Shown here piece after piece: positions 7,441 through 28,952 of a DNA stretch of 32,000 nt (its first letter is position 1; each line of letters opens with the position of its first letter). A program made the position numbers and the translations under genes. The stretch lies in contig NC_013202.1 in the NCBI RefSeq assembly GCF_000023965.1, positions 1,080,001 to 1,112,000 on the forward strand, read 5' to 3'. This DNA is from Halomicrobium mukohataei DSM 12286. GTDB taxonomy: Archaea > Halobacteriota > Halobacteria > Halobacteriales > Haloarculaceae. The notes under the pieces are model-generated. The model saw only the letters and a program-made list of their open reading frames with translations. It searched no databases and was not told the DNA's origin.

Positions 7441-7490
7441 CGTCTCGTACTGGCGAGCCCCGCCAGAAAGTGTTTCCCTCTCTCGGGACG

Positions 7491-7870
7491 ATCGTGTTCA
7501 GATAAGAGATCGGTGCAGGCAGTCTGAAGCACCGAAAGCCCTCGGCTCGCTCGGCGGTTCTGCGGCGGATATCCTCACTCCGTTCGGATAGTGCCGCCGC
7601 AGAACCGCCGACCGCGCCTCGCCCTTTCATCCCCCAGGATTCGGCTGTTTACCGGTCTAAACCCTGGCGGATGAAAGGGCGAGTGTAGTTGCGGGAACCC
7701 CGACGAAGTCTGCTCACGGGCGCAAAGCGCCCGTTCGCACGGCCAGAGGGACTCGGAGAGTCCCTCTCGGCAAGCACGCGAAGCGCGCGCAGCGAGTCGC
7801 GGGACCGCAACTGCACGAGGGCTTTCGGTGTCTACAACGCAGCAAATGCAGCGGCTTATCTGAACACTAC
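7491..7870 (+). mobile_element. MITE-like non-autonomous element, copy A (highly structured, no coding capacity)
   Basis: Terminal inverted repeats are GTGTTCAGATAAG (7494-7506) and CTTATCTGAACAC (7855-7867). Flanking 10-mers TCTCGGGACG (7481-7490) and CCTCGGAACG (7871-7880) match 8/10. It is homologous to 27879-28309. Nested stems: 7530-7544/7816-7830, 7552-7568/7594-7610, 7619-7638/7663-7682 and 7684-7694/7805-7815. Confidence 0.8.
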
Positions 7871-7889
7871 CCTCGGAACGGCACCACGC

Positions 7890-22196: not shown

Positions 22197-22252
22197 AGCC
22201 TAGGCCGGAATTTGAACCCGGGCTCTCGTCCTTACCAAGGACGCGCTTTACC
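22197..22252 (-). repeat. Partial duplicate of tRNA-Thr(GGU): positions from the D-loop GGTA to the 3' end; att-like direct repeat
   Basis: 55 of 56 nt are identical to 23960-24015; the single T-stem difference is CCCGG versus TCCGG. The 5' continuation cannot form an acceptor stem. Confidence 0.85.
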
Positions 22253-22635
22253 GAGGTGGCCTTCGGCCCTGAAAGCGGCTACCCTTGCTGCGAAATCCCA
22301 CTTTGCGTGCTTCTCATCTCTCTATCAGCAACTCTATTTATAAAAGAACCGGGGACTCGACCCCGTATGCCGTCTGTGGACGCAAGAAATCGACAACCGT
22401 GTTCGGGTGAGTGTTGCCATACTTGGCACATCAGAATTCTGTGGGGTTCGAGTGGTTCAGCTGGATGGCTCCCTTCATCGAGTCGGATAGCTCTGTTGGA
22501 ACCCTCTTAGTTCGATACCTGTCCGACTGAACAGCCAATAGGTAGATGTGCGTAGTTAACTGCTCAGCTCTCTGCTAAGAAGTAGCCGCCGATCGTCACC
22601 GAAAGTACTTACAGACTCAGAAGAAAACAATTTTT

Positions 22636-22887
22636 ATGCCTGCATTCGGCATTGGAACCCCGATATTCCTCACCTTACAAGCCCTCATCTCGTCGTTCGT
22701 CTACTCTGAGGCGAAAAAGTATGGCTCACGTTCCCCGTTAGTCGTGGGAGTATCCGTATTCGTACTGGGAGTGGGCCTTGCATTCATATTCAGTACTGTC
22801 ATCGGATTAGTTGCAGTCGAATTTCTCGTCATACTTATTTACCTTCTTGGAGTGAATGCTGCCAAACGACGTTCCACATCCGCCTGA
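22636..22887 (+). CDS. Orphan small membrane protein (83 aa, about 3 TM helices)
   Basis: MPAFGIGTPIFLTLQALISSFVYSEAKKYGSRSPLVVGVSVFVLGVGLAFIFSTVIGLVAVEFLVILIYLLGV.... Codon usage is low-GC, and the gene lies inside the islet. Confidence 0.55.
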   Translation: MPAFGIGTPIFLTLQALISSFVYSEAKKYGSRSPLVVGVSVFVLGVGLAFIFSTVIGLVAVEFLVILIYLLGVNAAKRRSTSA

Positions 22888-23048
22888 ACGGTTCTGTTAT
22901 CCGTTTCTCCTGTACTTACCGAAGCTACTCACAACATCGAGGAGCAGAAGAAACAATCCACTTCGATAAGGTAGCTCACGACCGACGACAGGGACAAATC
23001 TGCTGAATCCTCTACCTGTATCTCGCCGCATCGAGGATGTTCCATTAC

Positions 23049-23333
23049 TTAGTCGTCGTCAGCGGTGTACGCGCCGTCTCGACGCTTGATACGCGCGACG
23101 ACAAGCCGCTGGTCGTCCTGACGGAAGGTCACAGAGAGCCGAAACCCCCCGATGCGTATTTTCTTGTGCGGACTGTTCTGGAGTGGCTCCCCGTAGTCGG
23201 GCGGGTCGCGCCACGGCGAGGAGACGATTTCATCGAGCTTGTCGAGTATCCGGTCTTGGTCGGCGGGGGAAAGTCCATCAAGGTCGTTCTCGGCTTTCGA
23301 GGAGAGTTCCCACGTCCACCCGTCGTCACTCAT
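23049..23333 (-). CDS. Type II toxin, RelE/ParE family
   Basis: 94 aa. W.WELSSKAENDLDGLSPADQDRILDKLDEI...KIRIGGFRLSVTFRQDDQRLVVARIKRR is a typical RelE/ParE fold pattern. It overlaps the upstream antitoxin gene by 8 nt. Confidence 0.8.
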   Translation of the reverse strand: MSDDGWTWELSSKAENDLDGLSPADQDRILDKLDEIVSSPWRDPPDYGEPLQNSPHKKIRIGGFRLSVTFRQDDQRLVVARIKRRDGAYTADDD

Positions 23334-23607
23334 CGCTCGTGCCGAACCGCTCGCGGGCTTCCTCCGCGCTCGTCGTCCGTTCCTCGCGGATGTCCTCCTC
23401 CGCTTCGAGCAGGGCGACGAGTTCGTCGCGGTCGAACGTCGGGAACTCGACGGCGTCTCGAAGCGTGTACCGGATGAACTCGCTCCGACTGTTGAACCCG
23501 CGTCCTTGCCACGTATCGTCTATCTGTTCGAGGAACGACTCGGTGAGCTTGAAGTTCACCGTGGCGATGTCGTCTCCGCCGTCGTCGTTTGTGGCCGCTT
23601 CAGACAT
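23326..23607 (-). CDS. Ribbon-helix-helix (CopG-like) antitoxin
   Basis: ATG (cat 23605-23607) gives MSEAATNDDGGDDIATVNFKLTESFLEQIDDTWQGRGFNSRSEFIRYTLRDAV.... The RHH motif sits immediately upstream of the toxin. Confidence 0.75.
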   Translation of the reverse strand: MSEAATNDDGGDDIATVNFKLTESFLEQIDDTWQGRGFNSRSEFIRYTLRDAVEFPTFDRDELVALLEAEEDIREERTTSAEEARERFGTSDE

Positions 23608-23959
23608 ATAGACGTAATACGCTGGTCTTACCAATAGTCGTTTCGGCAACACTCTATTCGCCGCGTAATCGTCGTGAATGGCCGTATCGAGGGATATTCT
23701 ATCAGTTTCCTGACTACACTTCACTCGTTCCTCTGCGAGCGCAGATTAGCGAAATCAGTGCGTCCCTGAGGGGATGCGCTCCCGGTCAACTTCGGGGCTA
23801 TCCCGCCGCAGTCTGCGGGTTGATTTGTGTGTGCTGACAGTTTGGAGGATCACTATACAGCGAGGGATACCCTGTTTAGTGAGACAAGGCTGTTTTGAAT
23901 ATGTTGTGTTCAAGACAGACAAATCCGTAAAGTGTGTACAAGGAGTGTACGGCAGAAAG

Positions 23960-24031
23960 AGCCTAGGCCGGGATTTGAACCCGGGCTCTCGTCCTTACCA
24001 AGGACGCGCTTTACCTCTAAGCTACCCAGGC
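23960..24031 (-). tRNA. tRNA-Thr (anticodon GGU)
   Basis: Manual cloverleaf: GCCTGGG-TA-GCTT-AGAGGTA-AAGC-G-CGTCC-TTGGTAA-GGACG-AGAGC-CCGGG-TTCAAAT-CCCGG-CCTAGGC-T. All stems pair, with one G-U in the acceptor. Confidence 0.9.
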
Positions 24032-27091: not shown

Positions 27092-27575
27092 CGTATCCCG
27101 AAGAAGGGACGCTAGCGACTAATACCCCACCGAGTCGCCCCCAGGAGTGGACGATCGGTCAGTCTCAGGTGTCGCTGCGACGTTCCTCAGTGTCGAGACT
27201 CGGCGGGTATGATATGGGCCTATGTGCAGGCGACACGTGCTTGCCGGCAGCTGTCACATTCGTCAGTGGGCATTGGATGCCCACAGACACGAATAAAATG
27301 TATCAAGTAAATCTCGAACGAGATATCCACATGTCGGGTACACTTTCTGATTGATAGATCAAGGAGTGAGCTGGCTGTAGCAAGAACTGATTACAAAGAT
27401 ATCATATATCGGCAGAGGGACACTGGAAATGAATAGTTAGAGATTTGACAGATCTACAACCTTGTTAATCATCCCGCAGTTTGGGGTGTGTCCTAGCACG
27501 GTTGAGCTGTTGATTTAGGAACAGTAGAACTGATCCCTCTCAGCTCAGTCTGACAATTGGAAGAATATCTTCTCT

Positions 27576-27830
27576 TTACGATTTCACACCAATACCAATT
27601 TGATAAAATAAAAATGGTATAAGAACTATGGAAAGTGTGAGAGAAAAAGTAACAACTGAGAGGATTATCGGGAGTTCGACGTACCAAACTGTATCGGGCA
27701 CGATTGGTCCCATTGCAAATATAATGACCACTGCGACGGCTAGGGAAACCATTCCTGCGAAGAATATCTCTAACCGGCTTGACCATGCGCTCTCTCGCAT
27801 GAGGAGATACTCTTTCGGCGGAATTTCCAT
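27576..27830 (-). CDS. Orphan small membrane protein (84 aa) in an AT-rich region
   Basis: ATG (cat 27828-27830) gives MEIPPKEYLLMRESAWSSRLEIFFAGMVSLAVAVVIIFAMGPIVPDTVWYVELPIILSVVTFSLTLSIVLIPFLFYQIG.... It is the hydrophobic 3' part of ORF 27576..28022, whose 5' part runs into the MITE. Confidence 0.5.
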   Translation of the reverse strand: MEIPPKEYLLMRESAWSSRLEIFFAGMVSLAVAVVIIFAMGPIVPDTVWYVELPIILSVVTFSLTLSIVLIPFLFYQIGIGVKS

Positions 27831-27878
27831 ATTCCACACACTAATTCGACTGTGATAAATGTGCGGGACACTCCGCAG

Positions 27879-28309
27879 GCGGTGTTCAGATAAGCAGCAG
27901 CACTGACTGACATATAGACACCGAAAGCCCTCGGCACGCTCGGCGGTTCTGTGGCGGATATCTTCACTGCGTTCGATAGTGCCGCCGCAGAACCGCCGAC
28001 CGCACCTCGCCCTTTCATCCACCAGGAATCGGCTGGTTCACCGTCTGAAACCTGGCGGATGAAAGGGCGAGTGCTGCGTGACGGCGGAGCCGTCACGTTA
28101 TAGCCGGCCGGTTCCACCGGCCGGCCCTTGCGGGAACCCCGGCGAAGTCTGCTCACGGGCGCAAAGCGCCCGTTCGCACGGCCAGAGGGACTCGGAGAGT
28201 CCCTCTCGGCAAGCACGCGGAGCGCGCGCAGCGAGCCGCGGGACCGCAACTGCACGAGGGCTTTCGGTGCCTCGACGATGCTACTCTCGATCTCTTATCT
28301 GAACACTAC
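27879..28309 (+). mobile_element. MITE-like structured element, copy B (with an extra 51-nt two-hairpin insertion)
   Basis: TIRs are at 27882-27894 and 28294-28306. A perfect 10-bp direct repeat CACTCCGCAG flanks it at 27869-27878 and 28310-28319. It has the same nested stems as copy A. The insertion at 28077-28127 forms CGTGACGG/CCGTCACG and GCCGGCCGG/CCGGCCGGC hairpins. Confidence 0.85.
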
Positions 28310-28364
28310 CACTCCGCAGCAGGTTGCAATCTTTCTGATTGGCGAGTGAATGTGGCTGCCGAAA

Positions 28365-28745
28365 TCAGTCGCTCGACTCCAGCGGCTCCACGAACTCCAG
28401 CACGTACCCCTCGGGGTCCTCGACGAAGGCGACGTAGGCGTCGGCCGGTTCGATCACGGTGGGTGCGGTGACGACGGTCGCGCCCTGCTCTGTGGCGCGC
28501 TCGACCATCGCCTCGGTGTCGTCGACGGTGAGTGCGACGTGGTCGACGTCCGCGCGGTTGGGCGCGATCGGCGTCGTGCGGTCGGGGTCGTGCCGGAGCT
28601 GCAACTCGCCGTGGTCGCCGCCGACGTAGACGTTCTCGACCCCGTCGAGCGTGAACGACCACTGTCGTTCCAGCCCCAGTTCGGTGTAGAACTCGACCGC
28701 GCGATCCATCTCCGAGACCCACAGCGCGACGTGTGCAACGTCCAT
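28365..28745 (-). CDS. VOC family protein (glyoxalase/bleomycin-resistance/dioxygenase fold)
   Basis: MDVAHVALWVSEMDRAVEFYTELGLE...VDHVALTVDD...FVEDPEGYVLEFVE. The start is at ATG (cat 28743-28745). Confidence 0.85.
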   Translation of the reverse strand: MDVAHVALWVSEMDRAVEFYTELGLERQWSFTLDGVENVYVGGDHGELQLRHDPDRTTPIAPNRADVDHVALTVDDTEAMVERATEQGATVVTAPTVIEPADAYVAFVEDPEGYVLEFVEPLESSD

Positions 28746-28796
28746 GATCGGACGTGCGCGGCCCGGTAGTTGTGTGTATCGACTCGGTAGCGCTCC

Positions 28797-28840
28797 GATA
28801 AGAGAGTGAGGGCCGAGGGCTTTCGGTGTTTGCACACCGG
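28797..28840 (+). repeat. Short relic related to the MITE (left-end GATAAGAGA fused to right inner arm CGAGGGCTTTCGGTG)
   Basis: GATAAGAGAGTGAGGGCCGAGGGCTTTCGGTGTTTGCACACCGG. The 15-mer CGAGGGCTTTCGGTG is identical to 7816-7830 and 28256-28270. GATAAGAGA equals 7501-7509. There is no intact TIR. Confidence 0.5.
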
Positions 28841-28952
28841 TATCTCGGCTGCGCATGTGAACAGGACCACCGACTCCGGCGGGCCAGTTTTCGCGGCCGG
28901 CGTGTCAGAAGCTTGCCGTTGACTACTTGGTCAGTCCCCACGACCCCCGTGT

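Follow-up and report, generated by a model that had tools for sequence, protein, structure and literature searches.

The feature at positions 27878-28310 of the stretch of DNA analysed here, a 32,000-nt window of the haloarchaeon Halomicrobium mukohataei DSM 12286 (contig NC_013202.1, positions 1,080,001 to 1,112,000), is best explained as a non-autonomous MITE, or miniature inverted-repeat transposable element, of the IS6 family of insertion sequences (IS), ISH29/ISH14 group, with a conserved, modular and invertible palindromic core; we put the probability of this reading at roughly 0.8. It belongs to one repeat family together with a second element at 7490-7871, and the two are referred to as copy B (433 bp) and copy A (382 bp), respectively. 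All coordinates are positions in the full window. The family has terminal inverted repeats (TIRs) that match those of an IS6-family element, an 8-bp target duplication and the end signature of IS6; its members contain no transposase and are too short for one, and they are dispersed, with copies at unrelated intergenic sites in several haloarchaeal genomes. The unusual part of this MITE is its conserved, modular, invertible core, which lies between two IS-derived arms, is unrelated to the IS and consists of variable GC-rich hairpin modules enclosed by an inverted repeat, P1.

The order of parts in the element is a 17-bp TIR (GGNNGTGTTCAGATAAG), a linker of about 24 nt, a P1 arm (CACCGAAAGCCCTCG), the hairpins H1 and H2, a third domain (D3), the complementary P1 arm, a second linker and the second TIR. 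In copy B, the parts of which are given for the plus strand, the left TIR (GGCGGTGTTCAGATAAG; 27878-27894) is followed by a 24-nt linker that differs among copies (27895-27918) and by the 5′ arm of P1 (CACCGAAAGCCCTCG; 27919-27933), an invariant 15-bp inverted repeat that bounds the core and has double changes at none of its 15 pairs. In H1 (27934-28005) the outer stem covaries, the inner stem is conserved and has T27952 facing a G (T·G), and the apical loop, GATATYCTC...ATAGTG, is conserved too. H2 (28006-28071; CTCGCCCTTTCATCC...GGATGAAAGGGCGAG) combines a sequence-invariant stem with a variable loop. An optional 51-nt block (28077-28127), which forms two perfect GC hairpins (28077-28097 and 28103-28125), precedes D3 (28128-28254), the outer helix of which pairs TTGCGG... 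with ...CCGCAACTGCA; D3 in turn holds an optional 62-nt block of two hairpins (about 28147-28208). The 3′ arm of P1 (CGAGGGCTTTCGGTG; 28255-28269), the right linker (24 nt; 28270-28293) and the right TIR (CTTATCTGAACACTACC; 28294-28310) complete the element, which is flanked by the 8-bp target-site duplication ACTCCGCA at 27870-27877 and 28311-28318. Copy A, described on the same strand, has its TIRs at 7490-7506 and 7855-7871 and its P1 arms at 7530-7544 and 7816-7830; its target duplication (7482-7489, CTCGGGAC; 7872-7879, CTCGGAAC) matches at 7 of 8 positions. The genes around both copies are on the minus strand, with copy A between the stop of the SAMP2 gene and the start of the GNAT gene, and copy B between the stop of a glyoxalase gene and the start of a 114-aa open reading frame (ORF).

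Copies A and B align with a single gap, the 51 nt at 28077-28127, and are 84% identical from tip to tip. A preliminary description of this DNA, the sequence statements of which hold at the coordinates given, had estimated by eye that about a tenth of the shared positions differ and had placed the remaining substitutions mostly in loops. The core bears out the latter: differences occur at 18 of the 300 shared positions, that is, at 10 of 67 loop positions and 8 of 233 stem positions (Fisher p=0.0016). The double compensatory change from A7703/T7797 in copy A to G28142/C28236 in copy B, reported in the same description, is present. The 51-nt insertion with its two perfect hairpins was also correctly identified, but it does not lie at a junction that existed before; it cuts the 5′ arm of the outer 12-bp helix of D3, where GTGC-AG-TTGCGG is replaced by GTGC, 53 nt and TTGCGG in the third domain.

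The 10-mer CACTCCGCAG occurs on both flanks of copy B (27869-27878 and 28310-28319), with coordinates and bases as described previously, and had been interpreted as a 10-bp target duplication and as evidence of transposition. The repeat is real and transposition is borne out by the target duplication, but the latter measures 8 bp (ACTCCGCA); the additional C and G of the 10-mer happen to coincide with the terminal C and G of the element itself. Among 42 non-redundant copies, agreement between the left and right flanks is 71-88% at exactly 8 tip-adjacent positions and 12-48% elsewhere; since flank identity is limited to these tip-adjacent positions throughout the copies, the duplication is therefore 8 bp. 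In 28 of the 42 copies it matches at 7 or 8 of the 8 positions. The end consensus is GGNN[G/C]TGTTCA[G/A]ATAAG, with GG at 28 and 30 of 42 tips. Elements of the IS6 family are recognised by GG tips, cTGTt and caaa motifs and an 8-bp duplication (PMC7986276), and the left TIR of copy B carries this signature in its GG tip and cTGTt.

For the parent element, the end motif was scanned in viral and proviral contigs. One locus (L195, 2944-3640) contains two inverted end matches 697 bp apart with a perfect 8-bp duplication (GGTTTGAC). The IS at this locus has an ORF of 211 aa that scores 199 bits on NF033587, 'IS6 family transposase' (cut-off 125), also matches the Pfam family DDE_Tnp_IS240 and is 80.6% identical to the ISH29 transposase. 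Bases 1-17 and 417-433 of copy B are identical to the two ends of this IS (17/17 for each TIR, the right one being identical to ISH29 as well), and only the terminal 17-18 bp are in common. ISH29 on pNRC200 has the same ends as the element and an 8-bp duplication (GATAGGCC), in agreement with its description as a 697-bp element encoding 211 aa, with GG ends and a target-site duplication of 8 (PMC6807381). A plasmid of Halomicrobium urmianum bears an ISH29-like copy with the same ends, and transposase homologues are present in 5 Halomicrobium plasmid records; in Haloarcula pNG400 neither an IS6 element nor a matching TIR was found. A transposase with matching TIRs, which the preliminary description had proposed as a search target, thus exists as an IS6-family, ISH29-like element (L195 and ISH29). 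The IS6 elements listed for H. mukohataei are ISHmu2 and ISHmu9 (PMC6807381).

Short similarities suggest how the arms of the MITE may correspond to the IS. A linker of the AGATCGAGAG type together with a GGCG tip would mark the arm that looks like the transposase-proximal end of the IS, and a C-initial linker with a GGTA tip the one that looks like the opposite end. P1 was considered as a subterminal transposase-binding site common to the parent IS and was ruled out, as the IS is without P1. No autonomous element was found in the collected loci among TIR pairs 550-2500 bp apart, and a tblastn search of 1.4 Mb of loci, with an IS26 (IS6) transposase as the query, found no transposase.

The relation to an IS6 end also bears on a different origin, in which the element would be PATE-like or derived from IS200/IS605 elements, with single-stranded hairpin ends or a remnant of a TnpB guide RNA. 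The element is palindrome-rich, and such elements are numerous in haloarchaea (PMC3119063); the class is, however, by definition without TIRs and target duplications (PMC3119063), whereas the present element has 17-bp TIRs, an 8-bp duplication and ends equal to those of IS6. The TIRs and the 8-bp duplications refute this identity and leave it with a negligible probability.

About 100 copies of the family were recovered, all of them non-coding, from Halomicrobium katesii, Halovenus salina, two metagenome-assembled genomes (MAGs) of the Halobacteriales and hypersaline metagenomes. Genomes were scanned, one per species, with the pattern CACCGAAAGCCCTCGKGC, which was designed for both P1 arms and matched the D3-side arm only, so that each element gave one match; this was sufficient for the scan, which located 7 loci in H. 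katesii and 11 in MAG QS_4_62_28. A pattern of end plus P1 located 83 loci in hypersaline metagenomes. The P1 arms are spaced by no more than 423 nt in all 80 complete copies, none of which contains a transposase. The window itself is 100% identical to CP045142.1 (GCA_009217585.1) and, around copy B, 98-99% identical to H. katesii. A blastn search of 72,556 plasmid records returned no match to copy A, and the P1 15-mer gave only single chance matches in the viral contigs of IMG/VR.

An empty site for copy A was not found, as the other assemblies either carry the insertion or break inside it. Several Logan contigs (L204-L207 and L209), which are short-read assemblies of related samples, break exactly inside copy A, with L209 stopping 33 nt into the core. 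Breaks of this kind are the usual signature of a multi-copy repeat and show that the copy A insertion is common to those samples. With respect to the placement of the MITE, 16 oriented copies lie between divergent genes and 3 between convergent genes (loci L033-L174, crude gene calls), and this excess of divergent sites suggests a preference, of target or of survival, for promoter-side intergenic regions. No MITE of this sequence was found named in the literature searched, and it is absent from the Haloquadratum repeat catalogue (PMC3119063, supplementary tables). Copies are probably present already in automated MITE catalogues, because a large MITE census reports very many MITEs in QS-type Haloarculaceae and Halovenus MAGs (PMC11602168).

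The hairpin-rich core is kept paired by compensating mutations. This was assessed in an alignment of the 31 copies with the commonest architecture (alignment A2), using a consensus structure from RNAalifold, 500 shuffles and a control in which the pairing partners were slid. Paired cells make up 98.1% of the alignment compared with 92.0% in the shuffles. Double changes occur at 22 base pairs versus 11.7±1.4 in shuffled alignments, a value reached by none of the 500 shuffles, and versus 3-7 with slid partners. Of the 31 copies, 19 have A-U at the pair A7703/T7797 (alignment columns 227/271), 11 have G-C and one has G-U. Covariation is densest in the outer half of H1: seven pairs in a row are found there in many alternative, perfectly complementary sequences. 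It also occurs in the apical stem of H1 (TATCC/GGATA versus TATTC/GAATA) and in D3, including the pair 227/271. No sequence variation, by contrast, is seen in P1 (15 bp), the H2 stem (20 bp), the H1 loop or the inner half of H1. Copies A and B both fold far below their shuffles (z about -14), and do so equally on both strands. Covariation by itself is blind to the difference between pairing in RNA and intrastrand pairing in DNA.

Rfam contains no family for the element. With Rfam 15 at gathering thresholds, only tRNA-Thr was identified in the window, and a permissive Rfam scan of 27800-28400 gave only sub-threshold matches to generic hairpins. On inspection, the internal loop of H1 did not qualify as a K-turn, and the search for stable tetraloop motifs was negative.

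The preliminary description took the fold to be under selection at the level of a plus-strand RNA. The compensatory pairing, which exceeds both the shuffled and the slid controls, stands; action of the core as a plus-strand RNA is not supported. On that explanation the core would be a structured RNA, read with H1 first, that rides in the transposon under purifying selection on its fold. It would fit the significant covariation, the higher variation between copies A and B in loops than in stems, the G·U at columns 217/280 in 6 of 31 copies and the T·G at H1 position 5, which is conserved in 50 of 64 H1 hairpins and shows the C-G and T-A variants to be expected of a G·U site. Both wobbles on which the strand had been argued are present, namely TTCTGCGGCGG in copy A becoming TTCTGTGGCGG in copy B opposite an unchanged G, and T7686 opposite G7813, but neither points to the plus strand. 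At H1 position 5, T·G is the state of the majority (50/64) and the ancestral one, from which the C-G of copy A is derived, and it counts as one inherited observation; the T7686·G7813 wobble is a singleton.

Other wobble-type mismatches show no plus-strand signal. Outside the T·G site, G·T and A·C types are found 30 and 26 times, respectively (alignment A2; p=0.69), and in the 18-bp stem of the 64 H1 hairpins, with the same site excluded, 9 are of the G·T type and 28 of the A·C type. H1 positions 3 (13/64) and 20 (8/64) repeatedly show A·C or C·A, the counterpart of G·U on the opposite strand. The RNA fold is lower in energy on the minus strand in 43 of 48 oriented cores, by a mean of 5.6 kcal/mol (window positions 7530-7830 and 27919-28269 included); the 48 folded copies have common ancestry, and the minus-strand excess is read only as the lack of a plus-strand signal. 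The elements are not consistently oriented with respect to co-directional neighbouring genes, with 16 in the same and 14 in the opposite orientation by crude codon-usage gene calls. Both window copies lie between minus-strand genes, and read-through would therefore give minus-strand RNA. The linkers that adjoin the core, including those upstream, are not conserved, so no promoter is conserved there. In addition, half of the copies have a core that is reversed with respect to the arms, and the loop of H2 is occasionally flipped. Among the features looked for in a strand-specific RNA, covariation was found, whereas an Rfam match, an asymmetry between the strands, a consistent orientation and an own promoter or terminator were not. 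A plus-strand RNA is accordingly rated as quite improbable, and a strand-specific host RNA function is not a likely cause of the conservation.

A related explanation does without a preferred strand. In bacteria, the REP, ERIC and Correia repeats stabilise, insulate or process mRNAs, and the hairpins could likewise act in RNA as GC-rich stems that are co-transcribed with neighbouring genes in either orientation, with an effect at the level of the host or of the element keeping them paired. The equal folding of both strands (z about -14), the conserved pairing, the location of elements in short intergenic spaces, tens of bases from gene ends, and the unbiased orientation, which fits a symmetric function, are all consistent with this. 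Generic hairpin effects, however, would not need an invariant P1, H2 stem and H1 loop, stabilisers of 3′ ends would favour convergent and tandem sites rather than the observed 16 divergent versus 3 convergent ones, and the sequences of copies A and B contain no T-runs able to serve as an archaeal terminator. We consider this explanation unlikely.

The modular and invertible nature of the core became apparent from comparison of the copies. Each type of linker adjoins H1 or D3 equally often (48/95), so that the two orientations of the core relative to the arms are found in a ratio of 48:47. Near-identical copies differ solely by inversion of the segment between the P1 arms, as seen in L055 and L088 compared with L058, and in copy A and L065 compared with L075. 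On a smaller scale, 3 of 35 copies carry the loop of H2 in reverse between the H2 arms. Further rearrangements in some copies are an H1 at each end, tandem duplications into which a P1 arm is drawn, and an additional module bearing a second, degenerate P1 arm. The extra module, of about 57 nt (TCGCTCGACTTTCGAG...CACGAGAC), lies between P1 and the linker in 10 arms (for example L112, 6328-6383, and L167, 5625-5681, with eight further arms); it has a degenerate P1-like arm of its own, and P1 arms can therefore be duplicated along with modules.

The hairpin blocks of copy B behave in the same way. The 51-nt block is missing in copy A and in the H. katesii ortholog of copy B, and the same two-hairpin block recurs in another H. 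katesii copy (L058), which agrees with the earlier description of the hairpins as modules. The 62-nt block of D3 is also missing in the H. katesii ortholog. This ortholog has the same target duplication as copy B and flanks that are 98-99% identical, and has 21 nt where copy B has 28075-28208; the difference would be explained most simply by one conversion tract derived from a different copy. A comparable insertion was observed in the H. urmianum plasmid (NZ_CP084092.1; L202, 699-759), where about 61 nt interrupt the ISH29-like transposase gene. The insert consists of two small hairpins, is bounded by the short direct repeat ACGCCG and is reminiscent of the optional two-hairpin block of copy B.

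The inversions could also be taken to mean that the P1 arms are sites of a site-specific recombinase and the core a programmed invertible switch. Both P1 arms are sequence-invariant across genera, the two core orientations are equally frequent (48:47) and the breakpoints are at P1, in keeping with such a switch. Loop flips between short inverted repeats also occur inside H2, however, and suggest that inverted repeats in general behave in this way; the small intergenic loci of the elements contain no linked recombinase gene, and there is no sign of heterogeneity within populations. A programmed switch is therefore regarded as highly improbable.

For the IS6-family MITE, the following course of events can be proposed. 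An ISH29-like transposase supplied in trans would bind the ends and insert the element by the IS6 route, that is, by replicative formation of a cointegrate followed by recombination between the two copies. The palindromic core would act as DNA, with recombination or template switching between inverted-repeat arms flipping segments and conversion between copies shuffling modules. Conservation across copies would then reflect what the actively propagating lineage needs in cis, possibly for juxtaposing the ends or for promoting resolution or recombination.

Several points weigh against this interpretation. There is no transposase within the window, and the parent IS is supported at the level of the genus only. 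The IS is devoid of P1 and of the hairpins, so that ordinary transposase binding fails to explain their conservation; the conserved blocks are the two P1 arms, the stem of H2, the loop of H1 and the inner H1 with its T·G. The covariation is real, so pairing matters to something, and that may be an RNA role on either strand. Help of the core with synapsis or cointegrate resolution is a conjecture, and the gene calls behind the orientation comparison are crude.

A more far-reaching reading would make the P1-bounded core a structured nucleic acid with a function of its own, not passive filler, and one required in cis by IS6-type MITEs, with the P1 arms as a recombination site and the core as a flip-flop segment. 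It could, for example, be a cruciform or recombination hotspot that lets an element of 300-400 bp finish IS6 cointegrate resolution, or an RNA from either strand. Such a requirement would account for the freely covarying outer stem of H1 as well as for the cross-genus conservation of P1, of the inner H1 and its T·G, and of the H2 stem. We regard it as a tentative and rather doubtful extension.

In comparison with known systems, the element shares with ISH29 and its relatives identical 17-bp TIRs, GG tips, the cTGTt motif and an 8-bp target duplication, and differs from them in having no transposase and in an interior that is unrelated to the IS and made of conserved hairpin modules. Very few MITEs of the IS6 family have been described, and ISfinder holds two (PMC6807381). 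These, MITEHarch3 and MITEBth2, fall in the same size range (227 and 336 bp quoted), the comparison with MITEHarch3 being by description only. The MITEs of Haloquadratum walsbyi are likewise haloarchaeal and transposase-free, and have only the terminal bases and the length of the duplication in common with their parent transposon (PMC3119063), which is exactly the relation of copy B to the IS. The PATEs and SMRs of H. walsbyi, by contrast, are without TIRs or without target duplications, and the present element has both.

For the core, the nearest analogues are the structured or modular bacterial repeats bcr1, ERIC and BOX. The bcr1 repeats of Bacillus cereus, the ERIC repeats of enterobacteria, the BOX repeats of pneumococci and the Correia repeats of Neisseria are, like the present element, small, dispersed and intergenic, with long stem-loops. 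Compensatory changes are seen in bcr1 and ERIC, BOX consists of modules in variable number, and several of these repeats have transcript evidence. They differ from the haloarchaeal family in their hosts and transposase families, and we know of no counterpart among them to a P1-bounded core that flips relative to the arms. Small hairpin-associated inversions, in which loops flip between short inverted repeats, occur in chloroplast non-coding DNA. As there, close relatives differ in the orientation of a segment that short perfect inverted repeats enclose, here the core within the P1 arms and the H2 loop within the arms of H2; unlike there, the larger flipped segment is a multi-hairpin core of 140-350 nt within a transposon, and its 15-bp arms are conserved across genera.

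Elements of the IS6/IS26 type are drivers of genome rearrangement. The family described here goes beyond ordinary descriptions of MITEs in three respects: the interior can be far more conserved than the transposase-binding ends, it can evolve by shuffling of hairpin cassettes, and it can flip between short inverted repeats. If the core is needed for mobility or recombination, it would give new insight into how short IS6-type elements finish transposition. Otherwise, the family is still useful as a cautionary case, as a strand-specific RNA is not identified by strong covariation and a seeming G·U wobble in a repeat alone.

A decayed third copy of the MITE is present at 28786-28868 (plus strand), where the glyoxalase and aldo/keto reductase genes diverge from a common intergenic region. 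The whole core is deleted; what is left comprises a TIR-like 13-mer (28790-28802; 10/13), the 3′ arm of P1 (28814-28828), a linker of 24 nt and, with TGAACA at 28858-28863, a degenerate TIR. The remnant is also kept in H. katesii (L051, P1 arm at 2479). Elsewhere in the same H. katesii locus, a low-GC segment of 892 bp (L051, 3995-4885, corresponding to window position 27200) is missing from the window genome in a region that is otherwise 98-99% identical; an IS6 element was considered for this segment and rejected.

A further mobile-element remnant may be located at 22197-24031. The tRNA-Thr(GGU) gene (23959-24031, minus strand) has its 3′ part copied in a direct repeat of 56 nt, the two units of which (22197-22252 and 23960-24015) are 98% identical. 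An ORF for a ParE-like toxin (23049-23333; PF05016) and a ribbon-helix-helix ORF identified by a weak match (23326-23724), both on the minus strand, lie between the two units. The region looks like the remnant of a small tRNA-integrated element that carries a toxin-antitoxin pair.

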